Shown: positions 7,150-45,069 of the stretch, piece after piece
Layout of the letters: every line of letters starts with the position of its first letter
How positions within the stretch are numbered: the stretch's first letter is position 1
DNA from: an uncultured Pelagibacteraceae bacterium
GTDB taxonomy: Bacteria; Pseudomonadota; Alphaproteobacteria; Pelagibacterales; AG-422-B15
Direction: 5' to 3'
DNA length: 64,000 bases
Assembly (NCBI GenBank): GCA_902521655.1
Contig: CABYSM010000003.1
Coordinates: forward strand, 15,297-79,296
Made by a program: the position numbers and the translations under genes
Notes under the pieces: generated by a model
Seen by the model: the letters and a program-made list of their open reading frames with translations, nothing else
What the model was told of the DNA's origin: nothing
The model's database searches: none

Positions 7150-8307
7150 CTAGTTTCTTATAGTTCGATAAATTGAAATCATTAAGAAAATAAAAGTAAA
7201 AAATACAATTGTATATATAAAACCAATAGGACCAAAAATATCCATAACTCTTCCCCCAATCAAAGGACCAATTAATGAACCGCACTCAAAAACCATCACC
7301 AATATTGCCGTTGCGCCCGCAACCTGTGAAGCAGTATATCTTTCTCCCAACATTGTAAGTGATATCGAGAATATTCCACTTGCTGCTCCTCCCCAAATAA
7401 AACAGCTCAATGCCACTAAATAGAAGTTTCCAAGAAAAACACCTATAATTATTGGACAAATAAAAGTACAGAAGACAGCAATATTCATAAGTAGTCTCTT
7501 ATTCATCCTATCAAGTAAAATACCAATTAGCGGCTGGCATATGACACCGCCAACTAACGTAATAGTGACAAACTGAAGAGCAATGTCTTGTGAAAACTGA
7601 TTCTTAATCATAAAGATTGGAAAAAATGACACGAACATAACATCGTCTAATCCACAGAGAATTGCAGCTCCAAAAATAGTTGGGGCAGCTATTATCGTCG
7701 CTAAAATCGGAAGAGACTTTTTCTCAGGCAATTCTTGATCTGCTATATTGAATGTTATGAGAGGAATAATTGCTATAAATGACATTGCTGCAATTACAAT
7801 AAATGGAAGCCATCCCTCAATCCCCGTTAAAGATATAACAAGAGGACCAATTGCAAAGCCAATAATAAATACGGTATTGTATATTGTTACAATTTTCCCC
7901 CTATTTGTATCATCTGCCATTGATAACATCCATGTATCAAAGGCATTCCATGCAAGTGCTCCTGCAAAACCGATAAGAAATCGTATAATAAACCATGCAG
8001 TTAAACTCTCAAATACGGGAAAGGTGAAATATAAAATAATTGTGACAATCTGAGCAATCACAATGGACCTAGACAATCCAATTGTGTGAATGATAATAGG
8101 AGTAATTCTAACAAATAAAATTACCGCCAACGGTTGGGCTACAACATTCAAACCGATCTGTGTATTGCTATAGCCTCTTGATTCAAGTATTAGAGATAAT
8201 AAGGGAATAAGTGTTCCTAGTTTTATGCCAATAATGAGTGCACATAAAAATAAAACAATATAAGTTTTATAGTTACTTCCAAGTATTGATTGAAAAGATG
8301 AAATCAC
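7150..8307 (-). CDS. MFS transporter
   Basis: 385 aa with about 12 TM segments. It overlaps the upstream TetR gene by 4 nt. Confidence 0.75.
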   Translation of the reverse strand: MISSFQSILGSNYKTYIVLFLCALIIGIKLGTLIPLLSLILESRGYSNTQIGLNVVAQPLAVILFVRITPIIIHTIGLSRSIVIAQIVTIILYFTFPVFESLTAWFIIRFLIGFAGALAWNAFDTWMLSMADDTNRGKIVTIYNTVFIIGFAIGPLVISLTGIEGWLPFIVIAAMSFIAIIPLITFNIADQELPEKKSLPILATIIAAPTIFGAAILCGLDDVMFVSFFPIFMIKNQFSQDIALQFVTITLVGGVICQPLIGILLDRMNKRLLMNIAVFCTFICPIIIGVFLGNFYLVALSCFIWGGAASGIFSISLTMLGERYTASQVAGATAILVMVFECGSLIGPLIGGRVMDIFGPIGFIYTIVFFTFIFLMISIYRTIRN

Positions 8308-8948
8308 ACAAACCGTTTTTCATCTGTATAAATATTTTTAAAGTATTTTTTTACTAGTCCTTTACAAAATACGTGTGAGTACATTTTAGGATCAAATAAA
8401 ATTCTTTGCCATAACCCATCTACCATTGAGAGATAAGTCTCACTTATTTCTTTTGGGGTAAGAAAAGATTGATTATTTAAAATATTTACTTCTTTAATTA
8501 ACTTTTCCATCTGAGATGAATATATTTCATCTTGTTTTTGACAGATTGATAAATAAGAAGGACGGAACTTTACTTCACTATAGAAAGATACCCAGACTGC
8601 AATTTTATTTCTATTTGCAATTTTACTACTGAAATCATTTTCGATTATCTTAATCACTCTACCAACAGGATCTAAGTTATTATCTTCAAATATTCGTTGC
8701 CAAGAATTTTTATATTCGTCTGACAGAAATTTTAGTGAACTTAGTAAAAGATTTTCTTTAGATTTAAATCTAAAATTTGCATAGCCTTGTGATACCATTG
8801 CTTTTTTAGCAACTTGTGCAATCGTAGTATCTCCAAGACCTCTTTTAGCTATAGTTTCAATTGTTGCATCAATCAGTTTTTGATGATTGATTGAGAATTC
8901 TTGATCTTCAAGTTGATGATCACTAATTTTTTTGGGACTTATATTCAT
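8304..8948 (-). CDS. TetR-family transcriptional regulator
   Basis: N-terminal HTH is IETIAKRGLGDTTIAQVAKKAMVSQGYANFRFKSKENLL. I prefer the ATG at 8948 (MNISPKK) over the GTG at 8963 used by the ORF track. It is the first gene of a TetR-MFS-GNAT string and is divergent from the 9044 operon. Confidence 0.8.
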   Translation of the reverse strand: MNISPKKISDHQLEDQEFSINHQKLIDATIETIAKRGLGDTTIAQVAKKAMVSQGYANFRFKSKENLLLSSLKFLSDEYKNSWQRIFEDNNLDPVGRVIKIIENDFSSKIANRNKIAVWVSFYSEVKFRPSYLSICQKQDEIYSSQMEKLIKEVNILNNQSFLTPKEISETYLSMVDGLWQRILFDPKMYSHVFCKGLVKKYFKNIYTDEKRFV

Positions 8949-8990
8949 AAAAGAACCATACACAAAGTTTAATCATATGGGTAGTTTTGT

Positions 8991-9008
8991 ATTGAATAAT
9001 CATTCAAT
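8991..9008. promoter_or_regulatory. Candidate operator: 7-N4-7 inverted repeat ATTGAAT-aatc-ATTCAAT
   Basis: Perfect 7-bp arms read directly from the sequence. It sits in the 95-nt divergent gap between the TetR gene and the 9044 operon. The half-site is shared with the palindrome at 13422-13439. Confidence 0.55.
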
Positions 9009-9043
9009 ATGAGTATCATAATAATTCAATATTCGTACATTTT

Positions 9044-10672
9044 ATGCCAAAAAATACTCATGATGTAATTGTTGTTGGAGCGGGCCATAACGGGCTTACT
9101 GCAGCTAGTTATATGGCTAAAGCAGGATTAGATGTCGTTGTCCTAGAAAAAAATGATTGGATTGGCGGCGCGGCAGTAAGTCGAGAGCTTTACCCAGGAT
9201 GGAAATATTCAAATTGTTCTTATGTATGTAGTTTATTAAGGCCAGAGATCATGCGGGACTTAGAGCTTTATAAGTATGGGCTACAAATTATCCCATACGA
9301 AGGCAGTGCCACGATGATGAAAAATGGAGATTATTACACTCATTACCATGATCATGACATGACTATAAATTCTATAAGGCGTCATTCTCATAAAGACGCA
9401 GAAGCATATGAAAGATACAGCCGAGACGTTCTTAGACAATGTAAAATTATTAAGCCTCTACTAAAAATGACACCGCCTGACTTAACATCATTTAAACCAA
9501 AAGATTTATTTGGTGCCCTCGAGTTTGCGAAACATTTTGCTGCAAAAGATGAACTAGATGGTCTTGGAGAAAAAGAGATTTATGAAACTATTCGTTTCTA
9601 TACGATGAGTATTAGAGATTACTTAGAGGAATATTTTGAAAGTGAAATAACTAAAGCCCATCTTGCTGGCAGTGCAATCATAGGCACAGCTTTGGGTCCA
9701 TGTTCGCCAGGATCAGCTTATGTGTTGCTGCACCATTATATGGGTGAAGTTGATGGATCAGTTGGCTCATGGGGCTATGCAAGAGGTGGCATGGGATCTA
9801 TTACTCAAGCAATGATGGGTTGTTTAAAAGACCATGGTGGTGAAGTAAAGCCTAGCAGCGAAGTAACTAACGTTATTACAAAAAATGGAAAAGCAATTGG
9901 GGTCGCAACACAAAATGGTGATGAATATTACGCAAAGAAAATTGTATCCAATCTTGATGTCAAACGAACATTTCTAAAGATTACTGAGGAGAAGGATCTT
10001 CCTGATGATTTTGTGAGAAGCGTGAAAAATTTCAAGATAAGGGGGTCATCTGGTAAATTAAATATTGCATTAGATGCATTACCAGATTTTCCATGCATAC
10101 CTGAAGGCGATCCAGGGGGTGGTGGAGACATGCACTTCACAGAAACAATTGAAGAGATGGAAGGCGCTTATGACGATTGGAAAAGGGGAGAATGGTCACG
10201 AAATCCTTATGTAGATATGTGTATTCCATCCAAAAGTGATCCGACAATGGCTGAGCCTGGTAAGCATTATATGTCTGTATTTATTCAGTATGTACCATTC
10301 AACCTCGCAAATGGCGGATGGAATGAAGAGAGAAAGCAAGAGTTTGGAAGACATATTGTTGATTGTATTTCAGAGTTTTCACCTAACTTTAAAGACTTAA
10401 TTAATCATTATGAGGTTCGTACACCACTAGAATTGGAAAACGAGGTTGGTCTGACAGAGGGTAATATTTTTCAAGGAGAGTTGACCATGGACCAATTAAT
10501 GTTCAATAGGCCAGTCCCAGGATATGCACAGTATCGGACTCCATTAAAAAATATGTATATATGCAGTTCTTCAACACATCCAGGCGGAGGTGTAATGGGT
10601 GCCCCAGGAGCTAACGCTGCTCGTGAAGTTTTACTAGACATGAACGTTCCACAAAAAGGAAATTATTATTAA
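9044..10672 (+). CDS. NAD(P)/FAD-dependent oxidoreductase, amine-oxidase / CrtI (phytoene desaturase) fold
   Basis: 542 aa with N-terminal dinucleotide fold VIVVGAGHNGLTAASYMAKAGLDVVVLEK and C-terminal HPGGGVMGAPG. Confidence 0.7.
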   Translation: MPKNTHDVIVVGAGHNGLTAASYMAKAGLDVVVLEKNDWIGGAAVSRELYPGWKYSNCSYVCSLLRPEIMRDLELYKYGLQIIPYEGSATMMKNGDYYTHYHDHDMTINSIRRHSHKDAEAYERYSRDVLRQCKIIKPLLKMTPPDLTSFKPKDLFGALEFAKHFAAKDELDGLGEKEIYETIRFYTMSIRDYLEEYFESEITKAHLAGSAIIGTALGPCSPGSAYVLLHHYMGEVDGSVGSWGYARGGMGSITQAMMGCLKDHGGEVKPSSEVTNVITKNGKAIGVATQNGDEYYAKKIVSNLDVKRTFLKITEEKDLPDDFVRSVKNFKIRGSSGKLNIALDALPDFPCIPEGDPGGGGDMHFTETIEEMEGAYDDWKRGEWSRNPYVDMCIPSKSDPTMAEPGKHYMSVFIQYVPFNLANGGWNEERKQEFGRHIVDCISEFSPNFKDLINHYEVRTPLELENEVGLTEGNIFQGELTMDQLMFNRPVPGYAQYRTPLKNMYICSSSTHPGGGVMGAPGANAAREVLLDMNVPQKGNYY

Positions 10673-12189
10673 TGTCTGACAATTCGAATTTTGATGCCAT
10701 CATAATCGGTGGAGGTCATAATGGATTGGTATGCGCAAATATCCTTGCTAGAAAAAATAAAAGAGTACTAATTTGTGAAGCACGAAAAGAGTGTGGTGGC
10801 ATGGTCAACAATGAAATCACAAACTATGTTCCTCCAGTAACAACAGCTGTTTCAAGTTCGTTAGGAGGTATGCAAGTAAATTATTTGCCAAAGACTACAA
10901 TCGCTTTATCTGAAACTGGGCAGCACATCCGACTAGTTGGCAATCAACACATTGACCATAAATCTATCTCAACATTTTCATCGCACGATGCTGACCGTTT
11001 TAATGATTTTCATGAGAAAATGTCAAAATTCTCAAAAACTCTGGGCTCCTTCATGATGGCATCACCTCCACGTATTATGAACAACAGCTTTTCTGACTAT
11101 TTTAAGCTCTTCAAGCTTGGATTAAATGTTAGGCTACTAGGAAAGAAAAATTTCAATGAGTTTGCCAGGATGATTGGTCTAAATATAGCTGATGAACTCG
11201 AAGATAATTTTGAAAATACATTACTTCAAGGGTTGATTGCACATGACTCAGTCATAGGGTCAAATTTAGGCCCACGTTCACCAGGCTCTCTCATAAACTT
11301 ATTATATAGAATGGCTATCCACAATAATTCATTATTTGGTGGCATATTTCAGATAGAGGGAGGCAACGATCAATTCACTAAACATCTAATTGAAAAATGT
11401 AAAAGCAATAATGTAGAAATAAAGACCTCAGCGTCTGTTAAAAATTGTATTGTTGAAGATGACTGTGCTGTAGGCGTTGAACTAATTAATGGTGAAAAGG
11501 TGTATGCTAAGAAAATTATTTCTAATGTAGATCCACGTTCAACATACTTTTCATTACTTGGCTCTCAAAACCTTGATACTGACGTAAAAAGGAAAATTAA
11601 GCATCATCGCTCCAAAGGACGAGTTGCTAAACTTATTTTAGATTTAAACAAGTTACCTAGTTTTAACAATTGTGATGATATTGATCTTGATAGCAGAATG
11701 GTTGTTGCTCCATCTATTGATTACATTGAAGAAACATTTAACCCTAGTAAGTTTGACAAGCTTTCACTAGAGCCAACACTTGAAATTTGTGTAAAGAAAG
11801 ACTCTGATCAAAATCCAAAATTAGACATTCAAGTTCAATATGCACCATATAAAACTGATCAAGGGTGGGAAAATGTAAAAGAAAATTATATTGAATCTAT
11901 AATCAAAATCATTAGTAAATATGCTCCCAATATTAATGAATGCATCGAGCATAAGAAATTAATAACCCCTGACGATATTGAATTAGAATATAATGTATCA
12001 GGTGGACACTGGCATCACGGCGAGATCCAAATTGATCAGCTTTTTATGATGCGCCCAATTCCAGGAGCCTCACAGTATAAAACGCATTTGGATGGTCTTT
12101 TTATGTGTGGCGCAGGAACACATCCAGGTGGTGGCTTAACCGGTATTTCAGGCAAAAATGCAGCCAAAGCAGTTTTGGACGATTTTTAA
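10672..12189 (+). CDS. NAD(P)/FAD-dependent oxidoreductase, amine-oxidase / CrtI fold (paralogue of 9044)
   Basis: 505 aa with IIIGGGHNGLVCANILA and C-terminal HPGGGLTGISG. Its start overlaps the upstream stop (TAATG at 10670-10674). Confidence 0.7.
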   Translation: MSDNSNFDAIIIGGGHNGLVCANILARKNKRVLICEARKECGGMVNNEITNYVPPVTTAVSSSLGGMQVNYLPKTTIALSETGQHIRLVGNQHIDHKSISTFSSHDADRFNDFHEKMSKFSKTLGSFMMASPPRIMNNSFSDYFKLFKLGLNVRLLGKKNFNEFARMIGLNIADELEDNFENTLLQGLIAHDSVIGSNLGPRSPGSLINLLYRMAIHNNSLFGGIFQIEGGNDQFTKHLIEKCKSNNVEIKTSASVKNCIVEDDCAVGVELINGEKVYAKKIISNVDPRSTYFSLLGSQNLDTDVKRKIKHHRSKGRVAKLILDLNKLPSFNNCDDIDLDSRMVVAPSIDYIEETFNPSKFDKLSLEPTLEICVKKDSDQNPKLDIQVQYAPYKTDQGWENVKENYIESIIKIISKYAPNINECIEHKKLITPDDIELEYNVSGGHWHHGEIQIDQLFMMRPIPGASQYKTHLDGLFMCGAGTHPGGGLTGISGKNAAKAVLDDF

Positions 12190-13389
12190 ATGACACAAGA
12201 TCTTAGATATTCAGCCTTAAAGAAGACACCTTTTCATTCCAGAACCAGTATGGCTTCTCGAACTAACAAATATTATAATTGGAATGGCTACACTGTACCC
12301 ACTGAATATTCAACAACCGAGCTAGAATATACAGCAGCAAGAAATGGTACATCAGTTATGGATCTTACCCCTATGGGCAAATATGAAATTACGGGTGATC
12401 ATGCGCATAGATTTGTTGATTACTTAGTTACCCGAGACCTATCAGAAATGAAGGACAATACAGTAGCTTACATCATCTGGTGCAATGAAGATGGAAAAGT
12501 GATTGACGATGGTACTATTTTTAAATTTTCTTCAACAAAATTTATGCTGTGCTGTGCTGTTAAAATATATAACTGGCTTAACGACTCAGCTTATGGCTTT
12601 GATGTTTCAATAAGCGATGTAACAGACACTATTGCAGCATTAGCAATTCAAGGGCCAACATCGTGCTCGACTTTAAAAAAATTTGGAGCAACTGATCTTG
12701 AAAAACTAAAACCTTTTGAAATGAGAGAATATAAAATTGATGGCTTTAATATTTTAATTTCACGCACAGGATTCACTGGTGATTTGGGTTACGAATTGTG
12801 GACTGATCCAAAAAATGCAGAAACTACATGGGACAATATTGAGATTGCTGGCAAGGAGCTAAAATTAAGACCTTTTGGAATGCATGCTCTCGAAATGACA
12901 AGAATTGAAGCTGGGTTTATTCAAACCAATACAGACTTTATGGCCGCAGAAGACTCATTAAGACCAACCAGAATGAGGTCACCTTATGAAATTGGAATGG
13001 GATGGCTCGTGCACTTAAACAAGAACTCATACTTCGTTGGAAAGAAAGCTCTTAAAAAAGAAAAAGAAGAAAACACTACTGAGAGATGTTTAGTAGGTTT
13101 GGATATAGATGGAGATAAGCCAGCACATGGTTCTGTGATCTATAACAGCAAAAAAGAAGACATTGGCATTGTAACTGCAGCTCTATGGTCTCCTATTATG
13201 AAAAAAAACATTGCACTGGCTTCACTCAAGAGACCTTACGGAATAAAAATAAAAGAAAATATATTTGCAGAAATTTATCACCCTGAAGAACTTGAGTACC
13301 GTAAGATATGGGCAAGATGCAAGGTAGTGAAAAGGCAATTTTTTAACCCTGAAAGAAGAAATAAAGTTCCTGCAGATCTATATGAATAG
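12190..13389 (+). CDS. GcvT-family aminomethyltransferase-like (folate-binding T-protein fold)
   Basis: 399 aa with typical T-protein stretches: TPFHSRT, AARNGTSVMDLTPMGKYEITG, ALAIQGP, ISRTGFTGDLGYELW and LRPFGMHALEMTRIEAG. Its ATG follows the upstream TAA directly. Confidence 0.75.
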   Translation: MTQDLRYSALKKTPFHSRTSMASRTNKYYNWNGYTVPTEYSTTELEYTAARNGTSVMDLTPMGKYEITGDHAHRFVDYLVTRDLSEMKDNTVAYIIWCNEDGKVIDDGTIFKFSSTKFMLCCAVKIYNWLNDSAYGFDVSISDVTDTIAALAIQGPTSCSTLKKFGATDLEKLKPFEMREYKIDGFNILISRTGFTGDLGYELWTDPKNAETTWDNIEIAGKELKLRPFGMHALEMTRIEAGFIQTNTDFMAAEDSLRPTRMRSPYEIGMGWLVHLNKNSYFVGKKALKKEKEENTTERCLVGLDIDGDKPAHGSVIYNSKKEDIGIVTAALWSPIMKKNIALASLKRPYGIKIKENIFAEIYHPEELEYRKIWARCKVVKRQFFNPERRNKVPADLYE

Positions 13390-13413
13390 CCAAAAAATAA
13401 GGATTATATAGTA

Positions 13414-13451
13414 ATTCAATTATTGAACAGCTGTTCAATTTAAGCTATAAT
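13414..13451 (+). promoter_or_regulatory. Candidate operator plus promoter: ATTCAAT-t-ATTGAACAGCTGTTCAAT overlapping TTGAAC-N17-TATAAT
   Basis: There is an 18-bp perfect palindrome at 13422-13439 and an extra half-site at 13414-13420. The -35-like TTGAAC is at 13423-13428 and the -10 TATAAT at 13446-13451. The ATG of the next gene is at 13457. Confidence 0.5.
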
Positions 13452-13456
13452 GATTC

Positions 13457-14860
13457 ATGCCTAAATCCACATCCCAGCCTCCTATAAAAGATTTAAAGAA
13501 TACCCTAGATGATCGAATTCTTCATCCATGGCAATACTTAGAATACAGAGGTGAAGATGATCGGACATTTATTGATAAGTCTGAGGGGATTTACCTTTAT
13601 GACAAAACAGGAAAAAAACTAATTGATGGACCTGGAGGCATGTGGAATGTCAATGTTGGTCATGGTGTTAAAGAAATTGCGGATGCAGTTTACAATCAAA
13701 TTACTAAAATGCCTTACGCAAGTCCGTTTACTGAATCAACAGAAATAGCTCACAATTATGCATCAAGACTTGTTCAATATGCACCTGGTGATTTAAAAAG
13801 GATTTTTTTTACTTCTGGTGGATCGTCTGCTGTGGACTCAGCATTACGATTTGTAATGTTCTATAATAATATTCTAGGCCGAAAAGAAAAAAAACAAATC
13901 ATATCAAGAAATGATGCTTACCACGGTAGCACATTTTTAGGAGCTTCTTGCTCAGGCAAAGAAAGAGATAAAAATAATTTTGATTTCGCAAGTAATATTG
14001 TTCACCATATTTCATCTCCTAATCCTTTTCGTAAACCTGATGATCTTACTGATGAAGAATTCTGTGATCTAAAGGTTCAAGAATTAGAAAACAAAATAAT
14101 TGAAATTGGCGCTGACAAGGTTGCTGCTTTTATAGCTGAGCCTATTTTAGCTTCAGGTGGTGTGATTGTCCCACCAAAAGGTTATCATAAGAAGACACAC
14201 GAAATTTGTAAGAGACATGATGTACTGTACATTTCAGACGAAATCGTTACTGGTTTTGGAAGACTTGGCCACATTTTTGCTTCAGAAAATTATTTTGATT
14301 TCACACCGGATATTATACTTCTCGCTAAGGGGATCACATCTGGATATGTGCCTTGCGGAGCTGTTGTTATATCAGAGCGATTGATGTCCAAATTAGATAA
14401 TAAAGAGAAAGTAATTTTTTCAAACGGTTTCACAGACTCAGGGCATCCTGTTAGCATGGCCGCCGCAACTGCAACTCTGGACTACATTGAAAAAACTCAC
14501 TTACTTGATCACGTAAAAGATGTTGGCCCTTATTTTCAAGCAAAATTGAGAGAGCTCACTGATTTACCAATTGTTGGTGAAGTTAGAGGTGAAGGTCTTA
14601 TGGCCGCAGTAGAATGTGTGGGTAATAAGGATAAAAAAGATCCACTGAATTTATCTTACGAGATTGGTTCTAGGATTAATGAGCATTGCCAGCAATTAGG
14701 TTTAATCGTACGACCATTATTTAGTACATGCGTCATGTCACCGTCATTAATTATCACGAAGGAACAAGTTGATGACCTTGTTTCTATTTTGCGTAAAGGC
14801 ATAGAGTTAGCAACAGATGATATCAAAAAAGAAGGTCTCTGGTCAGCAACTTCAAATTAA
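13457..14860 (+). CDS. Class-III PLP aminotransferase
   Basis: 467 aa with DAYHGSTFLGASCSG, DEIVTGFGRLGHIFAS and ILLAKGITSGYVPCG. Confidence 0.8.
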   Translation: MPKSTSQPPIKDLKNTLDDRILHPWQYLEYRGEDDRTFIDKSEGIYLYDKTGKKLIDGPGGMWNVNVGHGVKEIADAVYNQITKMPYASPFTESTEIAHNYASRLVQYAPGDLKRIFFTSGGSSAVDSALRFVMFYNNILGRKEKKQIISRNDAYHGSTFLGASCSGKERDKNNFDFASNIVHHISSPNPFRKPDDLTDEEFCDLKVQELENKIIEIGADKVAAFIAEPILASGGVIVPPKGYHKKTHEICKRHDVLYISDEIVTGFGRLGHIFASENYFDFTPDIILLAKGITSGYVPCGAVVISERLMSKLDNKEKVIFSNGFTDSGHPVSMAAATATLDYIEKTHLLDHVKDVGPYFQAKLRELTDLPIVGEVRGEGLMAAVECVGNKDKKDPLNLSYEIGSRINEHCQQLGLIVRPLFSTCVMSPSLIITKEQVDDLVSILRKGIELATDDIKKEGLWSATSN

Positions 14861-16098
14861 TGACCTTTTTTAATCAACTTAAAGAAAGATATGAAGAAGG
14901 AAAGACTCTTCCGCAAGAGTTTTATACTGACGAAGAAATATTTTCTGATGAAATGAAAAAAATTTATTTCAAGCAGTGGCTGATGGTTGATCATGTTAGC
15001 CGTATTCCAAATCCTGGAGATTATTTTTTATTTAATGCAGAAAAAGAGTCAATAATCCTAATACGTGGAAGGGATAGTCAAGTTAGAGCTTTTTACAACG
15101 TTTGTTCTCATCGTGGTTCAAGAATATGTTTGGAAGAAGAAGGAACAAAAAAACTGTTAGTTTGTCCATATCATGCTTGGAGTTTCTCCGCAGAAGGCGA
15201 GTTAAAGTCAGCACGCTACATGCCAGATGATTTTAAAATGGAAGATTGGGGTTTAAAGCCTTGTCATATGAATATCTATCAAGGCTTGATATTCATAAAT
15301 CTCTCAATGGATGAACCAATGGATTTCAATGAGTTTATTGCCCCATTGACTGAGCTTGTAAATTTTCATAATCCTGAAAAGGCAAAGATTGCTGCTAGAC
15401 GAAAATATCCTACGAAAGCTAATTTCAAACTTGTCCTAGAAAATTTCCAAGAATGCTATCACTGTGGTCCAGCACATCCAGAGCTATGCTCAGTACATGA
15501 AAAAGACTGGGTATACACAATGGGTGCCGGTGTTGGAACGGCCCCAGAAAAAGAAACACAAGAATATTTAAAAAAGATTCAACCATGGATTGAGGATTGC
15601 AAAACAAAAGGAATCCCCTCAAAAACATATTTAGAAACTGAAGAAGGATTAAGTAAGGGATTAAATCGATACGTAGACCGTACACCCATCGGTAATGGAA
15701 ATTTATCACAAACTAAAGATGGCAAACCAGCCTCTAAACTAATGGGTCAGTTTAAAGAATTTGATGGTGGTTTATCCCAAGTAAGTTTTAATCCTTTTAG
15801 CTGTTGTTACTTTACAAATGATTTTGGAGTTATGTTTATATTTAAACCATTATCAATTTTTCAGTCTGAAGTTGAATTGATTTGGTTAGTCAATGAGGAA
15901 GCTGAAGAAGGCAAAGATTTTAATGAAGAAAACCTTACTCACATATGGGACGTAACCACTGCACATGACACAACCATTATTGAAAATAATCAAAATGGTT
16001 TGTTGTCTCATTCATTTAGTCCTGGAGTACTCTCACAGAACGAGTCTGCCGTTACGTATTTTTATGATTGGTATTTTACCAATATGAGACTACCATGA
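14860..16098 (+). CDS. Rieske [2Fe-2S] non-haem-iron oxygenase, alpha-type subunit (GbcA/Stc2/CntA-like class)
   Basis: 412 aa. Rieske ligands are C82-S-H84 ... C102-P-Y-H105 (CSHRGSRIC...CPYHAWSF). The mononuclear-Fe motif is ENFQECYHCGPAH (H201-x4-H206). Its start overlaps the upstream stop (TAATG). Confidence 0.8.
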   Translation: MTFFNQLKERYEEGKTLPQEFYTDEEIFSDEMKKIYFKQWLMVDHVSRIPNPGDYFLFNAEKESIILIRGRDSQVRAFYNVCSHRGSRICLEEEGTKKLLVCPYHAWSFSAEGELKSARYMPDDFKMEDWGLKPCHMNIYQGLIFINLSMDEPMDFNEFIAPLTELVNFHNPEKAKIAARRKYPTKANFKLVLENFQECYHCGPAHPELCSVHEKDWVYTMGAGVGTAPEKETQEYLKKIQPWIEDCKTKGIPSKTYLETEEGLSKGLNRYVDRTPIGNGNLSQTKDGKPASKLMGQFKEFDGGLSQVSFNPFSCCYFTNDFGVMFIFKPLSIFQSEVELIWLVNEEAEEGKDFNEENLTHIWDVTTAHDTTIIENNQNGLLSHSFSPGVLSQNESAVTYFYDWYFTNMRLP

Positions 16099-16115
16099 TG
16101 TAGGACAAATTTCTT

Positions 16116-17471
16116 ATGAAACAGCTGTACAACAAGGATATTTACGACGTTAATAAACCAGTAGAAAGTTATTGGGAAGAGGTCAGCAGCATTGACCAAA
16201 ATAAGTATCCAGAATTAGTTGGAGATCAATCATGTGATGTATGTGTCATTGGAGGCGGTTTTACAGGCATTAGTACGGCTTATCATATTGCAAAAAATTA
16301 TGGTGGAGATGTAAGAGTGTTAGAATCTGGGCACTATGGTTTTGCAAGTAGTGCAAGGAATGCGGGTTTTTGCTGTCTACCAGCTACAAAGTTATCTACC
16401 ACACAATTAATAAAAAAGTTCGGTATGGAAGAGACTAAGAAATTTTTTTCATCTCAAATTGAAGGCGTTGATCTTCTTGCATCTATTATTTCAGAAAATA
16501 ATATTGATTGTGAAAAAGTAGGTGATGGCAACCTTGATGTAGCTCACCATCCAGGAAGCAGTGAAGAATTAAAAGAATGGGGAAATGAATTGAAAGAGTA
16601 TTTTGGTATTAATACAAAATGGATACCTAAAGAAGAATTTGATGAAGTTGGACATCAATCAACTGAACAATTTGGGGCAGTATTTACAGAGGCTGGATTT
16701 GCAATGAATCCCATGGCGTTTATGCGAGGCTTTGCATCAGCAACTGTAGATGCAGGTGCAAAATTACATAGTTTTTCAAGAGTAAAAAAATGGGAGAGAA
16801 ATGGGTCACATAAGCTAATAACAGATGGTGGATCAATTACTGCAAATAAAGTTGTAGTAGCAACAAATGGTTACACTGATGAGTCGCTCCATCCAAGTTT
16901 TGCTAATCGAATGATGCCAGTCCTATCAAATATTATTGTTACCAGAGAAATGAGTGATGATGAATTTAAGTTGCAAAACTACAAAACTTTAAATCCCATA
17001 TGTAATTCTAGAGAAATTTTATATTATTACAGAAGAATGCCTTCTAACAGAATGTTGTTTGGCACAAGAGGTGATACTTATGGTGATGATGCAAGTGCAC
17101 TAAAAATGAGAGAATTTATGACTCAAAAATTTAGAGGCGTTTTTCCTCATTGGAATAATATTGATATTGATCACTACTGGAGAGGTACAGTTGTTATGAC
17201 CAGAGATTTTGTACCTGCATTTGGCGCATTGGATGACGACAAGTCAGTCTTATTTTCATATGGCTATCAGGCAAATGGTAACAATACTACAGTTTATTGT
17301 GGAAAGAAGCTGGCTGAAATGATTTACGAGTCAAATAGTGGAGAAACGAATATATCAAAAGTCTATCAAGGACTCTCTCCAAAAATACCATTAGGTTTTT
17401 TAAGATTATGGTATTTAAGACTATATCTATGGTATTCAAACTTTACAGATAAAAGTAAAAAAGAAATATAA
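16116..17471 (+). CDS. FAD-dependent oxidoreductase, DAO family (PuuB-like gamma-glutamyl-amine oxidase type)
   Basis: 451 aa with the dinucleotide fold DVCVIGGGFTGISTAYHIAK. Length and layout fit PuuB/DadA-type flavoproteins. Confidence 0.65.
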   Translation: MKQLYNKDIYDVNKPVESYWEEVSSIDQNKYPELVGDQSCDVCVIGGGFTGISTAYHIAKNYGGDVRVLESGHYGFASSARNAGFCCLPATKLSTTQLIKKFGMEETKKFFSSQIEGVDLLASIISENNIDCEKVGDGNLDVAHHPGSSEELKEWGNELKEYFGINTKWIPKEEFDEVGHQSTEQFGAVFTEAGFAMNPMAFMRGFASATVDAGAKLHSFSRVKKWERNGSHKLITDGGSITANKVVVATNGYTDESLHPSFANRMMPVLSNIIVTREMSDDEFKLQNYKTLNPICNSREILYYYRRMPSNRMLFGTRGDTYGDDASALKMREFMTQKFRGVFPHWNNIDIDHYWRGTVVMTRDFVPAFGALDDDKSVLFSYGYQANGNNTTVYCGKKLAEMIYESNSGETNISKVYQGLSPKIPLGFLRLWYLRLYLWYSNFTDKSKKEI

Positions 17472-17507
17472 ATTGCATCTATTATTTATATAAATTAAAA
17501 TTTTCTA

Positions 17508-18392
17508 ATGTTACAAGTTTGGAAGTCTTTTTATGCAAGGAGTGATCCTGCAAAAGCTTATTCACTTCTTTCTCCTGCATTGATTCTAGTTACTTTAGCT
17601 ATGCTTATACCTTTAGGGCTAATGTTGAGTTTTAGCTTTTTCACTCAAGTTAGCTTTACTGAAATTGACTACTCTTTCACCATTCAAAGATATATTGATT
17701 TTTTTCAAAAGAACTTGCTTGTCTCTTTACTTATAAAATCAGTGAAGATTTCGTTTATCGTAACTTTCGTAACTCTCCTTACTGCATATCCTGTCTGTTA
17801 TTACATAGCTTTTTATGTAAAGAAAAATAAAATGTTATGGCTTGTTTTACTGACATTACCTTTCTGGACATCTTATCTTTTAAGGGTTTTTTCCTGGAAA
17901 ATTATACTTGGAACTAAGGGAGTTATTAATTCTTCTTTAATTAATGCAGGACTGCTTAGCGAACCTCTCACTTTTCTAATGTATTCTGAGACTGCAGTTA
18001 TCATAACGCTTACCCATGCATGGGCAGCATTTGCTTTATTACCTTTGTACGTATCATTGGATAAAATAGATTTTTCTCTAATTGAAGCCGCCAGAGACTT
18101 AGGATTGTCAAGATTAGAAACTTTTTGGAAAATTACACTTCCTTTATCTCTTCCTGGAATCATTGGTGCCATACTAATTATCTTTATTCCAACAGTAGGA
18201 GATTATGTTACTCCTGCTTTACTTGGAGGAACTGATGGGAGAATGCTATCAAATATGATCCAAGCTTACTTTGGAAAAGTAAACAATCTTCCTCTTGGTG
18301 CTGCGTCTGCAACCATTATGCTCATTACTGTTGCGATAGTGACAATGATCGTTTCATATACAACAAAAAAACTTACTCAAAGGATTTCTTAA
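17508..18392 (+). CDS. ABC transporter permease, PotB-like
   Basis: 294 aa with 6 TM segments and the EAA-loop region IEAARDLGLSRLETFWKITLP. Confidence 0.8.
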   Translation: MLQVWKSFYARSDPAKAYSLLSPALILVTLAMLIPLGLMLSFSFFTQVSFTEIDYSFTIQRYIDFFQKNLLVSLLIKSVKISFIVTFVTLLTAYPVCYYIAFYVKKNKMLWLVLLTLPFWTSYLLRVFSWKIILGTKGVINSSLINAGLLSEPLTFLMYSETAVIITLTHAWAAFALLPLYVSLDKIDFSLIEAARDLGLSRLETFWKITLPLSLPGIIGAILIIFIPTVGDYVTPALLGGTDGRMLSNMIQAYFGKVNNLPLGAASATIMLITVAIVTMIVSYTTKKLTQRIS

Positions 18393-19208
18393 GTGGAACA
18401 AAAGAACAATACATTGTTAATCTACACATTATTGTATTTTGCATTTTTATATATCCCTGTTTTATTCTTGCCAATATTTAGCTTTAATGATGCAAATTAT
18501 ATGTCATTTCCACTTTCAGGATTTACAACAGAGCATTATGAAGAAATGTGGGCAAAAACAAATTTACATAAAGCTCTTTGGGCTAGTATCAAAGTAGGTA
18601 TAGTTGCAAGTGTTGTCAGTACAACAATTGCACTTTTCGCAGCCAAAGCATTTGCACGTTATAAATTCAGAGGGCAAAATATTTCTTACGGGGCCATTAT
18701 GATTCCTTTTTTAATTCCAGAAATTATTTTAGCGGTTGCAATACTTGTTATTTGGTTAAGCCTTGGTTTTAAATTAGGACTTGTACCGGTAACTTTAGGA
18801 CATATTCTTTTTTGTACTCCATTTGCAATGCTTATTTTAATTGCTCGTATAGAAGGCTTTGATTTCTCACTAGAGGAAGCATCAAGAGACCTTGGGGAAA
18901 ATGCCTGGGGGACATTTTATCGAGTATCTCTTCCATTATATCTACCAGGTATAATTGCCTCACTTTTATTGAGTTTTATAATTTCATTTGATGAATTTGT
19001 TCTTGCGTTCTTCTTAACTGGAAGCGATGCAACATTGCCCATGTATATGTGGGCTCAAATGAGATTTATTCAGAAACTACCGCATGTGTTGGCTTTAGGT
19101 GCGGTTATAATTGTGTTTACTACTTTTATAGTTTTGTTAGCATTCTGGTTGAGAAACCTTGGTCAAGGAAAAGAGAAAGCTGAATTTGGAATAAAAATAC
19201 ATGAATAA
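18393..19208 (+). CDS. ABC transporter permease, PotC-like
   Basis: 271 aa with a GTG start directly after the upstream TAA. The EAA loop is EEASRDLGENAWGTFYRVSLP. Confidence 0.8.
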   Translation: MEQKNNTLLIYTLLYFAFLYIPVLFLPIFSFNDANYMSFPLSGFTTEHYEEMWAKTNLHKALWASIKVGIVASVVSTTIALFAAKAFARYKFRGQNISYGAIMIPFLIPEIILAVAILVIWLSLGFKLGLVPVTLGHILFCTPFAMLILIARIEGFDFSLEEASRDLGENAWGTFYRVSLPLYLPGIIASLLLSFIISFDEFVLAFFLTGSDATLPMYMWAQMRFIQKLPHVLALGAVIIVFTTFIVLLAFWLRNLGQGKEKAEFGIKIHE

Positions 19209-20283
19209 TTCTTTCATACAGATAAACGGAATTTCAAAGCATTTTGGAAATGTTAAAGCGGTAGATGATGTCTCTTTTCAAATCAAAGAGGGAGAGTTTT
19301 TCTCTCTACTCGGCCCATCGGGTTGTGGTAAAACAACTTTACTGAGATTGCTTGCCGGCTTTGAGTACCCAACTAGTGGCAACCTATTACTTGATGGCAG
19401 TGATATTACAGCATTACCTCCTGATAAAAGACCTACAAATATGGTTTTTCAGAATTATGCAATTTTCCCACATATCAATGTTGAAAAAAATGTTCAGTTT
19501 GGTTTGAGAAAACTTGGCTTAACAAACGATGAAATTATCAAAAGAGTTAAGGATGTTTTGTCGTTGGTTAAATTAGAAGGTTATGAGGAACGCTATAGCA
19601 GCCAACTATCCGGGGGTCAAAGACAAAGAGTGGCATTAGCGAGAGCTTTAGTAAGGCAGCCTAAAGTATTATTGCTGGATGAGCCACTTGGAGCATTAGA
19701 TAAAAAGTTACGTGATGAAATGCAACTCGAACTAAGAACTCTTCAAAAAGAGATTGGAATAACTTTTGTATTCGTTACACATGATCAGCAAGAAGCCATC
19801 AGTATGTCTGATCGAGTTGCGGTGATGAGTGAAGGCAAAATTCAGCAGATGTCATCTCCAAATGAGTTATATAAAAACCCTCAAAATATTTTCGTGAGTG
19901 ACTTTATTGGTGAAACTAATTTTTTAAAAGCTAATACAGGGTCAAAGGATGGAGAATATATTAATGTTAACATTGAAGATCTTGGTTCGTTCAAAATAAA
20001 GAATAATCTCAATATAAGTGAAAATGCCTCAGAAGTTATTTGCAGTGTTCGTCCAGAGACTATGATGATAGACACAGAAAAATCAGACTGGGATATTTGC
20101 TTAGAAGGTAAAATTAAGCAAACATCATATTTGGGTGAAATGACAAAATTTTATGTTGAAACAAAAGAAATAGAAAAAATTATAACTGTATCATCACAAT
20201 ATTTTGATAATCAGTCTTTCCAAGATAGCAAATGCTTTATCAGCATAAACTTAGCTGATATTTCCTTACTAAATAAAAAATAG
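19201..20283 (+). CDS. ABC transporter ATP-binding protein, PotA-like
   Basis: 360 aa with Walker A GPSGCGKTT, signature LSGGQRQRVALARAL and Walker B LLLDEPLGALD, plus a C-terminal regulatory/TOBE-like extension. Confidence 0.85.
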   Translation: MNNSFIQINGISKHFGNVKAVDDVSFQIKEGEFFSLLGPSGCGKTTLLRLLAGFEYPTSGNLLLDGSDITALPPDKRPTNMVFQNYAIFPHINVEKNVQFGLRKLGLTNDEIIKRVKDVLSLVKLEGYEERYSSQLSGGQRQRVALARALVRQPKVLLLDEPLGALDKKLRDEMQLELRTLQKEIGITFVFVTHDQQEAISMSDRVAVMSEGKIQQMSSPNELYKNPQNIFVSDFIGETNFLKANTGSKDGEYINVNIEDLGSFKIKNNLNISENASEVICSVRPETMMIDTEKSDWDICLEGKIKQTSYLGEMTKFYVETKEIEKIITVSSQYFDNQSFQDSKCFISINLADISLLNKK

Positions 20284-20334
20284 CCTGTCCTCAAGAGAGA
20301 ACAAGCTATTTTAAATTAGTTAACTAGTAGTGTA

Positions 20335-21423
20335 TTAGCCGCCAGCTACCATTTCAGCCCACTGAGCTTCCATGTAGTCAGTCACTTCGTCAGACGGCAT
20401 CACAGAGAACATTCCATTATTTAAATGTTCGATAGGATTTGATGCAACTCCACGTTCAGCTAATTCGTCAGCTGTAAGTGTGCTAAATCCAGCTTTATTA
20501 CTGTGTCCATAACCCCACTCACTTAATAAGTAAGCAGATGTTTCAGCACTAGTAGCACCATTGATCATCGCGTATGCTTTATCAAGGTCTGCACCTTTAA
20601 CAATCGCAAGACCACATGCCCAAGTCATTGTGCCATTGGAAGGCTGCATCATTTTTGCACCTGCACTCCATGCTATTTCGTTCCATCCAAGAGCTACGTC
20701 TATTTCTTCGTTACCTAGCGCTTCGATCATTGAAGAAGTATCTCCAAAGAATGCACGAATTTGACCATTGTCTCTCATTTCACGAAACTTATCGATACCT
20801 TGATCAATTGCAGCTTTTGTTAATTGATCTTGCTCTCTTATGTCAATTCCAAGATGGTGCATCATTAAAAATAATGAGTCTGCAGCAGAGTCTAAAATAC
20901 CTACTTTACCTTTTACTCTTGGGTCTTCCATTAGAGCAAAGCTTTCATTTGAGGCGTCCATCCAATCAATCCTGTCTGCCATGTAAAACAATGTAGTATC
21001 TCCCCAGTCGACTGGCGCAAAATAATGCTTACCATCAACCATGCCACTTGGCAGGTCTCTAACTTCAGGGAACATGTCATTCCAGTTTTCAATTCTTGAT
21101 GGATCAAGCGGCTCTAATACGCCTGCTCTTACCCATCTTTTTATTTCACCTTGACATGGCCATGCTAAGTCAACTTCAAAGCCTGCTTTTAGTTTTTGCA
21201 ATCCTTCTTCAGCATCACCAAATATTGAGTATTCAGGGGAACCGTGCTCTTCAGCGTATGTTCCAAATAGACCATCATCATCGTAGCCACCCCACAGGAA
21301 TACAGATCCTGGCTCATCTGCAAAAGCTTTAGTTGTTGACGTTACACCAGCGATAAAAACAAACGATAGTGATACAATCAAAGCTTTTACAAAAGAATTT
21401 TTCATTTCTTTGTATTTTGGCAT
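20335..21423 (-). CDS. Periplasmic substrate-binding protein of a PotD/PotF-type ABC importer
   Basis: 362 aa with a signal peptide ending TKAFA|DEPGS. It is an acidic, Trp-rich mature protein, convergent with the potBCA-like genes. A GAGGAAG Shine-Dalgarno lies 7 nt before the ATG. Confidence 0.7.
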   Translation of the reverse strand: MPKYKEMKNSFVKALIVSLSFVFIAGVTSTTKAFADEPGSVFLWGGYDDDGLFGTYAEEHGSPEYSIFGDAEEGLQKLKAGFEVDLAWPCQGEIKRWVRAGVLEPLDPSRIENWNDMFPEVRDLPSGMVDGKHYFAPVDWGDTTLFYMADRIDWMDASNESFALMEDPRVKGKVGILDSAADSLFLMMHHLGIDIREQDQLTKAAIDQGIDKFREMRDNGQIRAFFGDTSSMIEALGNEEIDVALGWNEIAWSAGAKMMQPSNGTMTWACGLAIVKGADLDKAYAMINGATSAETSAYLLSEWGYGHSNKAGFSTLTADELAERGVASNPIEHLNNGMFSVMPSDEVTDYMEAQWAEMVAGG

Positions 21424-21458
21424 AATTAATCTTCCTCTTTTTTTTATTTATACCAAAA

Positions 21459-21486
21459 ATTGTACACCTATAAGGTCGTTGGTCAA
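21459..21486 (-). promoter_or_regulatory. Candidate sigma70-type promoter for the binding-protein gene (TTGACC-N16-TACAAT on minus strand)
   Basis: The reverse complement of 21481-21486 is TTGACC and of 21459-21464 is TACAAT. It lies in the 67-nt gap between the amidase stop and the SBP start. Confidence 0.45.
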
Positions 21487-21490
21487 TATA

Positions 21491-22987
21491 TTAAAGGGGA
21501 ATCAAGGGACGATTTTTGTTTGAATTAAGCCATGGATCTAACATTTCGTAGTTGTACCCACCCTGGAATACTAATTCATCGCTGTAAGATCGAGCAATAA
21601 TTTGGATTCCTGTTGGAATATTGCTAGAACTTAATCCTGAAGGGACTGATAGGACCGGTAATTTACCTAACATATTAAATGGATGTGACATGACCCAAGA
21701 AAAATCTGCACACTTCTGCTCTTTATTATTGATAATGATATTTTCATTAACAATATCAATATCAGCCTTAATTGAAGGTAAGGAGTTTGTAGGACATATA
21801 AATAAATCGTAACTGTCTAATATTGGTCCAATTTCTGAATACATTCGGCCTGTGATCTCTGAGCTTTCAATAACATCATATCCAACATAAGCCCCTATTT
21901 GATCATGATAGTACTTCTCATTATTTTGTATCGCTCTGATATGTAATTCAGGGACTTCAGCAAACATTTTTGCATAATCAGTTAATAGTTTTTTTTCATC
22001 GTTTGAAAATTTTGCTATTAGGCCATAAAATGAATTAGCGTAATGACTAAAGCAAACTGAATTTACTTCATCTCGATTCCAATTTAATTTTACTTCTGTA
22101 ATTGTTGCACCAAGAGCCTCAAATTTTTTTAGAGCCTCCAATGTATTTTTTTCAACTTCTTCATCCACCTCAAAAAATCCAAGATCAAGTGAATAAGCAA
22201 TTTTCCAGTTCTTAATATTCTCAAACTTATTAGGAATAATTTTTTTGGGTCTGAGTGAAGCAATATCATTTTTATTTGGACCACTCATAACATTTTGCAT
22301 AAGGGCACAATCACTAACTGTTCTCGCAAGGGGACCAACAACACAATACGGATCGTGATTAAAAGGATAACCCATTGGATTTCTTCCATAGGGAGGTTTG
22401 TAACCAACGACTCCGCAGGCCCCAGCAGGGATACGAATTGATCCACCTATATCACTACCAGTTGCAAGTGATGCACAACCCGACGCTAGTGCAGCAGCAC
22501 TCCCCCCACTTGAACCTCCCGGTGTCATATCTAAGTTCCAGGGATTTCTTGTGACGCCATTAACTTTGGAATGGCAGAATGATGTAAGTGAAAATTCTGG
22601 GTTAGTTGTGCGTGCATGAATTATTGCACCAGAGCTTACAAGGGACTCTACATCTACATCAGTTCCTTCTGCTATTACGTCTTTATAGATTAAGCTTCCA
22701 TTCTTATTAGGTTGTCCCTTTATATTAACTTCATCTTTAATTGCTAAAGGTAAACCTTCCAAAGGCAAAGTAGATTTATCTTCTGTATATTTTAATTCTG
22801 AATGTTTCGCTTCTTTCAATGCTTCTTCAAAGCGAAAAAAATTAAAAGCATTAATTTTTGGGTTTACATTTTCAATTCTTTTTATTGTCTCATTTAATAG
22901 CTCAACTGGAGACAAAGATTTATTTTTAAATTTTTCCAGGGCTTCAGAAGCTGATAAATAACAAATATCGAGGTCTAAACTACTCAT
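21491..22987 (-). CDS. Amidase-signature (AS) family amidase
   Basis: 498 aa with the AS motif GGSSGGSAAALASG, GSDIGGSIRIPA and the upstream catalytic Lys context LAIKDEV. Confidence 0.85.
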   Translation of the reverse strand: MSSLDLDICYLSASEALEKFKNKSLSPVELLNETIKRIENVNPKINAFNFFRFEEALKEAKHSELKYTEDKSTLPLEGLPLAIKDEVNIKGQPNKNGSLIYKDVIAEGTDVDVESLVSSGAIIHARTTNPEFSLTSFCHSKVNGVTRNPWNLDMTPGGSSGGSAAALASGCASLATGSDIGGSIRIPAGACGVVGYKPPYGRNPMGYPFNHDPYCVVGPLARTVSDCALMQNVMSGPNKNDIASLRPKKIIPNKFENIKNWKIAYSLDLGFFEVDEEVEKNTLEALKKFEALGATITEVKLNWNRDEVNSVCFSHYANSFYGLIAKFSNDEKKLLTDYAKMFAEVPELHIRAIQNNEKYYHDQIGAYVGYDVIESSEITGRMYSEIGPILDSYDLFICPTNSLPSIKADIDIVNENIIINNKEQKCADFSWVMSHPFNMLGKLPVLSVPSGLSSSNIPTGIQIIARSYSDELVFQGGYNYEMLDPWLNSNKNRPLIPL

Positions 22988-43410: not shown

Positions 43411-44045
43411 ATAATATTTTTTGCTTTATCAATAAATTCAGTAATTAATTGTTTATCTTTTATACCCTCTGAATCCTCAACACCAGAACTAACATCAAAA
43501 TAACTAGTCTTTTTAAGGTTTATAGCTGAGATTATATTGTCTTTGTTAAGTCCTCCTGAAAGAAAAAAGTTCTTAGTTATCGATAAATTCTTAATTATCT
43601 TCCAATCAAATCTATGGCCAGTCCCGCCTTGAGTATTAGCTTGAGGAGGTGAATCAAGTAAGAAATATTCTACAAATGGTTCATATTTAACTAATTCATC
43701 TAAGTCATGAGAAGAAGAAATTCCAAAGGCTTTAATAATCTTAAAACCAAACTTTAATTTTATTCTTTCGACCATTTCAAGAGTTTCGTGACCATGTAGT
43801 TGAATATATTGAAAACCAATTCTCAATAAATCATCTAATAAATTATCATCTGGATTAACTGTAACGGCAACAGGTATGGTTTGATCTTTTATCTTAGATA
43901 AAATTTCCTCGCAATTTTCAACAGTAATGTTTCTGTGGGATTTTTCATAAAAAATAAACCCTATAAAGCTTGCACCAGCATCAATTGCATGCTGTGCCAT
44001 TTCTTGGTTTTTTACGCCACAAATTTTAATTTGGATATCACTCAC
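43407..44045 (-). CDS. trpF: Phosphoribosylanthranilate isomerase
   Basis: 212 aa with IKICGV, IQLHG, and the expected position upstream of trpBA. Confidence 0.85.
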   Translation of the reverse strand: MSDIQIKICGVKNQEMAQHAIDAGASFIGFIFYEKSHRNITVENCEEILSKIKDQTIPVAVTVNPDDNLLDDLLRIGFQYIQLHGHETLEMVERIKLKFGFKIIKAFGISSSHDLDELVKYEPFVEYFLLDSPPQANTQGGTGHRFDWKIIKNLSITKNFFLSGGLNKDNIISAINLKKTSYFDVSSGVEDSEGIKDKQLITEFIDKAKNII

Positions 44046-44748: not shown

Positions 44749-45069
44749 TTAATCACCTTCTTCTTGTGAAACAGAGGTATTGTTTTTAGAGTTTAATTTT
44801 AGTCTTAATTCTTTACCAGTTTTAAATCTTGGAATAAACTTTTCATCTACTTGAACAGCTTCCCCAGTTCTTGGATTTCTTCCCGTTCTTTCTTTTCTGT
44901 GTTGAACTGAAAATGCTCCAAAACCTCTTAATTCTACTCTTTTCCCCTCAGCTAAGGAATGTGTGATTTCATTAAATATCGTATTAACTATTCTTTCTAC
45001 GTCTCTGACAAATAAATGAGGGTTAGCTTCAGTAATATTTTGTATAAGTTTAGATTTAATTAAGCTCAT
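44749..45069 (-). CDS. ihfB: Integration host factor beta subunit
   Basis: 106 aa with [23 protein letters not shown]. It lies downstream of cmk-rpsA, as in many proteobacteria. Confidence 0.9.

Follow-up and report, generated by a model that had tools for sequence, protein, structure and literature searches.

A BetI-like TetR-family regulator probably has a second operator on an internal, predicted near-leaderless promoter of a SAR11 catabolic and transport gene cluster

In a 64-kb stretch of DNA from an uncultured Pelagibacteraceae bacterium (contig CABYSM010000003.1; about 34% G+C; this whole stretch is called the window, and positions count from its first base), a perfect 18-bp palindrome lies directly upstream of a class-III aminotransferase gene within a SAR11 cluster of catabolic and transport genes. 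The palindrome is probably the second operator (O2) of the BetI-like TetR-family regulator encoded at 8304–8948, placed on a σ70 promoter internal to the cluster; the first operator (O1) is predicted in the divergent region between the regulator gene and a flavin adenine dinucleotide (FAD) oxidoreductase gene. Transcription from the O2 promoter is predicted to start at or within about 2 nucleotides of A13457, the first base of the aminotransferase start codon, and we lean towards a main product with a leader of at most 3 nucleotides. Both proposals come from comparison of sequences.

The palindrome, ATTGAACAGCTGTTCAAT, was read from the window sequence at 13422–13439, in the 67-nucleotide gap between the aminotransferase gene and a GcvT-like gene that ends at 13389. 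The elements of this gap are:

13422–13439, no strand: predicted operator O2, ATTGAAC-AGCT-GTTCAAT, with the conserved core ATTGAA-N6-TTCAAT, at about −35 to −18 relative to the ATG.
13414–13420, no strand: additional ATTCAAT half-site, everted with respect to the O2 left arm.
13423–13428, plus strand: predicted −35 element TTGAAC, formed by the left arm of O2 (10/12 hexamer match with a 17-nucleotide spacer; TTGAA invariant in the alignment).
13446–13451, plus strand: predicted −10 element TATAAT, which reads TATACT or TATATT in other lineages; its distance from the operator is constant.
13452–13459, plus strand: discriminator GATTC followed by the ATG; the gap length is conserved, its sequence free and the ATG invariant.

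An earlier note on this DNA had placed the palindrome, ATTCAAT, TTGAAC, the 17-nucleotide spacer, TATAAT and the ATG, and every one of these positions matches base for base. The half-site is better written as 6-N6-6, arm position 7 being C or T in each arm independently. The ATG at 13457, which 5 nucleotides separate from the −10 hexamer, is secure as the start codon because an in-frame TGA (13451–13453) excludes a longer aminotransferase open reading frame (ORF) and no alternative ATG, GTG or TTG occurs before the conserved HPW region of the protein.

Chance levels for palindromes and hexamer pairs were taken from shuffles of the window. Palindromy alone was dropped as an argument, since perfect 18-bp palindromes (2 observed, 0.62 expected) and 7-N4-7 repeats (12 observed, 8.3 expected) occur at chance frequency; the 7-N4-7 pattern with up to three mismatches likewise gave 9 matches against 8.95 expected, and only the exact 6-N6-6 core is informative. 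This core, ATTGAA-N6-TTCAAT, has two matches in the 64 kb (8991 and 13422) against 0.06 expected. No more than two intergenic gaps within the TetR-to-potA cluster (8304–20283) reach 60 nucleotides, and these are where the two copies, O1 and O2, lie. Both offer TTGAAY as a −35 element with a −10-like hexamer 16–17 nucleotides downstream; the palindrome thus overlaps the predicted −35 element and spacer in the divergent region as well as before the aminotransferase gene. That the same half-site recurs at a second location, as had been reported, holds in the form of this shared core. The other perfect 18-bp palindrome of the window, TTTAGATTTAAATCTAAA (8757–8774), lies within the TetR coding sequence and is consistent with chance. 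At 44327–44344, inside a coding region (44042–44734, minus strand), ATTGATTGACTTTTCAAT is one mismatch from the operator core, with an ATTGAT arm as in Escherichia coli; this match is probably due to chance.

The regulator and the first operator are arranged as follows:

8304–8948, minus strand: BetI-like TetR-family regulator, proposed repressor of O1 and O2 (214 amino acids from ATG 8948; longest ORF from GTG 8963).
8991–9008, no strand: predicted operator O1, ATTGAATAATCATTCAAT = ATTGAAT-AATC-ATTCAAT, in the TetR/FAD-oxidase divergent region.
8992–9019, plus strand: predicted promoter of the 9044 unit (TTGAAT, 16 nucleotides, TATCAT), its −35 element being the left operator arm, as at O2.

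O1 lies between the minus-strand TetR-family gene and the FAD oxidoreductase gene that begins at 9044, and its sequence is unchanged in every one of the 31 O2-bearing Pelagibacteraceae loci that extend over it. The regulator carries the TetR_N (PF00440, E = 1.5e-9) and TetR_C_6 (PF13977, E = 2.3e-8) domains, both above their gathering scores, and is BetI-like, not choline-responsive BetI proper. Its gene probably starts at ATG 8948 and not at GTG 8963, since database homologues are called at 214 amino acids; its own promoter is not definable with confidence from the alignments. A −10-like TATGGT (8960–8955) stands 6 nucleotides before ATG 8948, a spacing that is not conserved elsewhere (9 or 15 nucleotides), and the TetR gene may also have a leaderless-type promoter. 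A third ATTCAAT (9025–9031), downstream of the −10 element of the 9044 promoter, is limited to the closest relatives of the window (L001–L006, L035, L039, L058 and L059; loci are given L numbers here where they must be told apart) and does not extend to other Pelagibacteraceae.

A locus scan that drew on a single genome from each species yielded 66 loci. The closest (98–99% protein identity) belong to single-cell genomes labelled Pelagibacteraceae. Gene order is kept in about 40 of the 66, with an MFS transporter gene and the TetR gene on one strand and the catabolic and Pot genes on the other, the latter in the order FAD oxidase 1, FAD oxidase 2, GcvT-like, aminotransferase, Rieske oxygenase, DAO-type oxidase and PotBCA-like. 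An alignment of the gap upstream of the aminotransferase gene covered 41 syntenic sequences, 29 of them distinct. Conservation of the palindrome in related genomes had been named in the earlier note as a check on its proposal, and the outcome is favorable: the arms are invariant across the 41 sequences, and in all 29 distinct ones the twelve arm bases of O2, T-A-T-A-x-T and the ATG are unchanged, with T-A-T-A-x-T exactly 17 nucleotides from TTGAA. Variable in the same alignment are the six central operator bases, arm position 7 included, and about 16 nucleotides upstream. The bases between the −10 hexamer and the ATG vary freely (GATTC, CAATT, TGAGA, TCAAT, AGGGT and others) over a gap that is usually 5 nucleotides long (6 in L034 and L036; 7 in L023). 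Judged from the alignment, this pattern is the footprint of a protein-binding site together with a promoter at a fixed distance from the start codon, not that of an RNA stem. The extra ATTCAAT, also pointed out previously, is present at its place in the window and kept in most Pelagibacteraceae loci, but it is lineage-specific, being absent from L033, L034, L036 and the HIMB59-type loci described below. Right after the GcvT stop codon, GCCAAAAA (13390–13397) is kept in nearly all Pelagibacteraceae loci (L033 being without it), and the bases after it vary.

Three more distant Pelagibacteraceae loci (L037, L047 and L062), in which the palindrome is missing, still have the TetR gene and an O1 of closely similar sequence, and lack both O2 and the −10 hexamer. 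Their aminotransferase gene follows close behind the GcvT gene, with GGAGG just upstream of the ATG, located in the intergenic gap in L037 and inside the GcvT coding end in L047 and L062. This joint absence indicates that the operator and the −10 hexamer are gained or lost as one, the behavior expected of a promoter module, and an ordinary ribosome-binding site replaces the module at least in L037.

The pairing of site and regulator recurs outside the Pelagibacteraceae. On HIMB59-type metagenome contigs, a TetR gene (36–41% identical to that of the window) is divergent from an oxidase gene (73% identical), with gTTGAATGCTCATTCAAa between them. The HIMB59-type aminotransferase (55–57% identical) has acyl-coenzyme A (CoA) dehydrogenase, CoA-ligase and enoyl-CoA hydratase genes as upstream neighbors, and it is preceded by an invariant ATTGAATGCWTATTCAG, by TANNNT 17 nucleotides past the TTGAAT of that site, and then by 9 nucleotides to the ATG. 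Both HIMB59-type sites share a lineage-specific GC center and take the form TTGAATGC..ATTCA, which points to a parallel change of the two sites alongside a diverged regulator. A further HIMB59-type match to the motif, at about 4160, was dismissed as it falls inside a CoA-ligase ORF of 685 amino acids. A GC-rich Kiloniellaceae cluster of homologous genes carries TTTGAATAGTTGTTCAAT about 45 nucleotides upstream of a gene with a BetI-type TetR domain.

A related operator is found next to betI of E. coli, where the betI-betT intergenic region carries ATTGATTGGACGTTCAAT, that is, ATTGAT-N6-TTCAAT; 11 of the 12 arm bases equal those of the window core and the spacing is the same. This E. coli sequence sits in a promoter-region mutagenesis primer of an engineered BetI gate (PMC7058928). 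In an alignment of the helix-turn-helix region, which is a small sample, regulators that adjoin TTGAA-N6-TTCAA sites read [VL]S[QGT]G, and three TetR–Rieske fusion homologues with other palindromes upstream (see below) read TAAS at the same stretch.

We propose that the left arm of O2 acts as the −35 element while the right arm fills the spacer, so that a bound repressor dimer would block RNA polymerase. The repressor would be released by a ligand, probably a methylated amine or a related compound on which the cluster acts, and the O2 promoter and the O1 promoter at 9044 would thereby be freed together. The O2 transcripts would begin on the start codon or only a few bases away from it, and they would be translated without a leader. 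The aminotransferase unit is probably also transcribed by read-through from the 9044 promoter, and the O2 promoter would then be a second, co-regulated entry point to the cluster. The earlier note had envisaged the aminotransferase, Rieske oxygenase and FAD oxidase genes, possibly with the pot-like genes, as a separately repressible unit under the regulator of the 9044 unit. A separately started unit under that same regulator is strongly supported by the comparison, through the invariant shared core, the place of O1 in the TetR divergent promoter region, the recurrence of the pairing in the HIMB59 type and the match to the BetI operator. The unit is not an insulated one, however: a terminator scan and fold analysis found no terminator between 13389 and 13457, and the O2 promoter would therefore be an added one inside the cluster.

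Several observations weigh against assigning the two palindromes to this regulator and a working promoter to O2. The regulator scores 95.1 bits against TIGR03384 (cut-off 201.3) and 94.4 bits against NF001978 (cut-off 118), and it is 23% identical to E. coli BetI. The three fused homologues with different palindromes imply that the operator is not predictable from family membership alone. σ70-like hexamer pairs are not enriched in the window either, with 39 found against 51 expected in shuffles. If the adjacent TetR protein is thus only a distant relative of E. coli BetI, if homologous fusions have other palindromes upstream, and if its binding to O1 and O2 is itself predicted from sequence, some other, unlinked regulator might bind both palindromes. 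We consider this quite improbable, because every lineage has O1 in the divergent promoter region of the TetR gene itself, the site/TetR pairing holds in Pelagibacteraceae, the HIMB59 type and the Kiloniellaceae cluster, both HIMB59-type sites have changed in parallel, and the predicted DNA-reading helix stretch covaries with operator type. LexA, for which a Cheo-box site (GAAC-N4-GTTC) was considered, was rejected: arm position 7 is not conserved, and it is T in O1 and several O2 variants, which read GAAT/ATTC. A paper on DmdR was set aside, DmdR being a GntR/FadR-type regulator that SAR11 lacks.

The TetR protein might, alternatively, bind O2 where there is no working promoter, the site serving as a roadblock or second anchor for transcription from 9044 and TATAAT being kept in some other role, such as that of an AU-rich landing site for ribosomes. 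Such a role would suit the likely read-through from the GcvT-like gene, the frequency with which promoter-like hexamers arise by chance in the window, and the fact that most genes of the genome initiate translation without a Shine-Dalgarno sequence; it leaves unexplained why T-A-T-A-x-T is fixed in its distance from TTGAA in 29 distinct sequences and is lost together with the operator in three lineages, and why the geometry of −35 element, 17 nucleotides and TANNNT recurs in HIMB59-type loci despite a different upstream neighbor gene, and we judge it unlikely. Least probable is that the palindrome works as an RNA hairpin on read-through transcripts, whether as terminator, attenuator or processing site. 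A 7-bp stem with a 4-nucleotide loop can form, but no U-tract follows it, the terminator scan was empty at the site, the folding energy is unremarkable (z = −1.77) and there is no relevant Rfam match. Changes at arm position 7 are moreover one-sided and without compensation in five loci (L009, L010, L013, L033 and L036), and a terminator would be senseless at O1, which is situated within a divergent promoter region.

With the operator-and-promoter reading of O2 preferred, the nature of its transcript can be considered. Leaderless initiation is favored by the conserved length and free sequence of the −10-to-ATG gap before an invariant ATG, by the base before the A of the ATG, which is mostly a pyrimidine, and by the presence of a Shine-Dalgarno site in L037, one of the three lineages without the promoter. 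The spacing between the −10 hexamer and the ATG is 5 nucleotides in most lineages, which we count as agreeing with the roughly 6–7 nucleotides taken as the mark of a leaderless start; in the HIMB59 type it is 9. All 41 sequences have ATG and none has a GGAG-like core, which is weak evidence. Other points tell against a leaderless start. The 5-nucleotide gap sets A13457 one base nearer to the −10 hexamer than a canonical start, and a transcript that began at T13458 or G13459 would lack an intact start codon. Shine-Dalgarno cores (GGAG, GAGG or AGGA at −20 to −4) precede only 10 of the 59 genes of the window, compared with 9% of random 17-mers, so that the missing Shine-Dalgarno sequence is uninformative. 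Of the 25 genes preceded by a gap of 40 nucleotides or more, 4 have a strong −10 hexamer 5–8 nucleotides before the start, where about 2 are expected, a difference that is not significant. A full-text literature search found no SAR11 start-site map or report of leaderless mRNA. Two further genes of the window, 44749–45069 and 21491–22987, both on the minus strand, have strong −10-like hexamers (TATAAT and TAAAAT) that end 6 nucleotides before the ATG, in the geometry of the site at 13457.

The units on either side of O2 comprise the following genes:

9044–13389, plus strand: upstream unit, two CrtI-like FAD oxidoreductases and a GcvT-like aminomethyltransferase.
13457–14860, plus strand: class-III aminotransferase, 467 amino acids, first gene of the O2 unit (NF005447, 651 bits, above cut-off).
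14860–16098, plus strand: Rieske oxygenase alpha subunit, GbcA-like, below the equivalog cut-off.
16116–17471, plus strand: FAD-dependent (DAO family) oxidoreductase.
17508–20283, plus strand: PotB-, PotC- and PotA-like ATP-binding cassette (ABC) transporter genes, end of the O2 unit.

An exact look-up of the aminotransferase protein matched no record. The O2 unit appears to end at a hairpin with a 16-bp stem (20277–20312) between the convergent potA-like and binding-protein genes; the hairpin was called on the minus strand, its stem begins in the last potA bases, and it may act as terminator for both genes. The substrate suggested by the combination of a GbcA-like Rieske oxygenase, a folate-dependent GcvT-like enzyme, a class-III aminotransferase, FAD oxidases and a Pot-like transporter, with binding-protein and amidase genes near the cluster, is a nitrogen compound of methylated or polyamine-like type. 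Six loci (L003, L008, L010, L011, L027 and L031) have 260–780 nucleotides of extra DNA between the Rieske and DAO genes, which in L010 (8643–9417) contains two small ORFs of 74 and 153 amino acids.

The regulator and the Rieske oxygenase, which are separate genes in the window, are fused in other bacteria, and this fusion links the regulator functionally to the O2 unit. In L041 (6303–8147, minus strand), a BetI-type TetR protein (TetR_N and TetR_C_6) is joined to a Rieske oxygenase alpha subunit, and the same fusion occurs in L086 (6001–7872), L087 (6001–7851) and L088 (6001–7839), where it was confirmed by gene calls on contigs of 336–709 kb. The four-domain architecture is found in all 120 matches listed (588–656 amino acids, 49–60% identical apart from the query's own record), and the named carriers among these matches are Alpha- and Gammaproteobacteria; a full-text literature search found no description of a TetR–Rieske fusion. 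GcvT-like and CoA-ligase genes neighbor the fusion gene in two of the three contigs examined (L086 and L087), and further neighbors are an aminotransferase gene (L086) and enoyl-CoA hydratase and glutamine-synthetase-like genes (L087 and L088). The L086, L087 and L088 genomes have 63–68% G+C and carry AT-rich palindromes of another type about 40–110 nucleotides upstream of position 6001: TAAATGATCATTTA lies inside a TTGACA-17-TAGAGT promoter in L086, and GAGTATTTA-N6-TAAATACTC is found in L088. The idea that the fusion homologues share the operator of the window was accordingly abandoned, as the three on long contigs have TAAAT/ATTTA-type palindromes and only the Kiloniellaceae one matches.

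SAR11 bacteria are among the most abundant organisms in the ocean and are noted for very few transcriptional regulators. For this group, a TetR regulon with two operators, deeply conserved and set over an 11-kb cluster for amine-type catabolism and uptake, would be a concrete example of substrate-responsive control; ATTGAA-N6-TTCAAT offers a defined motif for regulon searches, and the conserved −10/ATG geometry a specific place to seek leaderless transcription in SAR11 metatranscriptomes. A more ambitious proposal, which we regard as possible although doubtful, is that operator, promoter and start codon are held within about 36 bp in both SAR11 and the HIMB59 type, with one BetI-like repressor switching two units of which the second is truly leaderless, and that this arrangement has been kept across order-level divergence. 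If true, it would be one visible case of wider leaderless transcription in streamlined marine Alphaproteobacteria.

Among known systems, E. coli BetI resembles the regulator of the window in its TetR_N helix-turn-helix and BetI-type C-terminal domain, its operator architecture with nearly equal arms, and the divergent placement of the regulator gene and a regulated gene. The window cluster differs in having two operators, one of them on an internal promoter, and in its enzymes: no betA, betB or betT (choline dehydrogenase, betaine-aldehyde dehydrogenase or BCCT transporter) was found in 7150–22987, and the cluster consists instead of two CrtI-like enzymes, a GcvT-like enzyme, an aminotransferase, a Rieske oxygenase, a DAO-family enzyme and a Pot-like transporter. 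A second parallel is the acuR-acuI-dddL operon of Rhodobacter sphaeroides, in which the 8-N6-8 operator of a TetR repressor covers the promoter and the AUG itself forms the 5′ end of the transcript, without a Shine-Dalgarno sequence (PMC3017554). Both are alphaproteobacterial catabolic operons with a TetR-family repressor and an inverted-repeat operator that has a 6-nucleotide center and overlaps the promoter. In the AcuR system, however, it is the regulator gene that comes first and is leaderless, with a start mapped by rapid amplification of 5′ cDNA ends, whereas the first gene in the window encodes an enzyme and its start is predicted; the AcuR operator, TAATAGAC-N6-GTCTATTA, is unrelated to that of the window, and the window promoter is internal to a longer gene array.

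Leaderless mRNAs are numerous in other Alphaproteobacteria, with 375 in Caulobacter crescentus, where Shine-Dalgarno use is 24.6%, and 171 in Sinorhizobium meliloti (PMC4117421). The proposed O2 transcript is like these in having a −10 element directly before the start codon, an AUG expected at its 5′ end and a low overall use of Shine-Dalgarno sequences; theirs were established by global 5′ mapping and ribosome profiling, while the case in the window is put forward from conserved geometry. The earlier note had expected a leaderless or nearly leaderless transcript, which fits the conserved 5–7-nucleotide gap of free sequence, but its remark that this would be unusual for a proteobacterial catabolic operon was overstated in view of these counts and of the leaderless, TetR-controlled acuR operon: such an operon would be unusual for E. 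coli-like bacteria, not for Alphaproteobacteria. The switch design is the standard TetR-type arrangement, and its worth lies in annotation and ecology, not in a new mechanism; new are SAR11 as the host, a layout with two operators of which one is on an internal promoter, and the retention of this layout across Pelagibacteraceae and the HIMB59 type.

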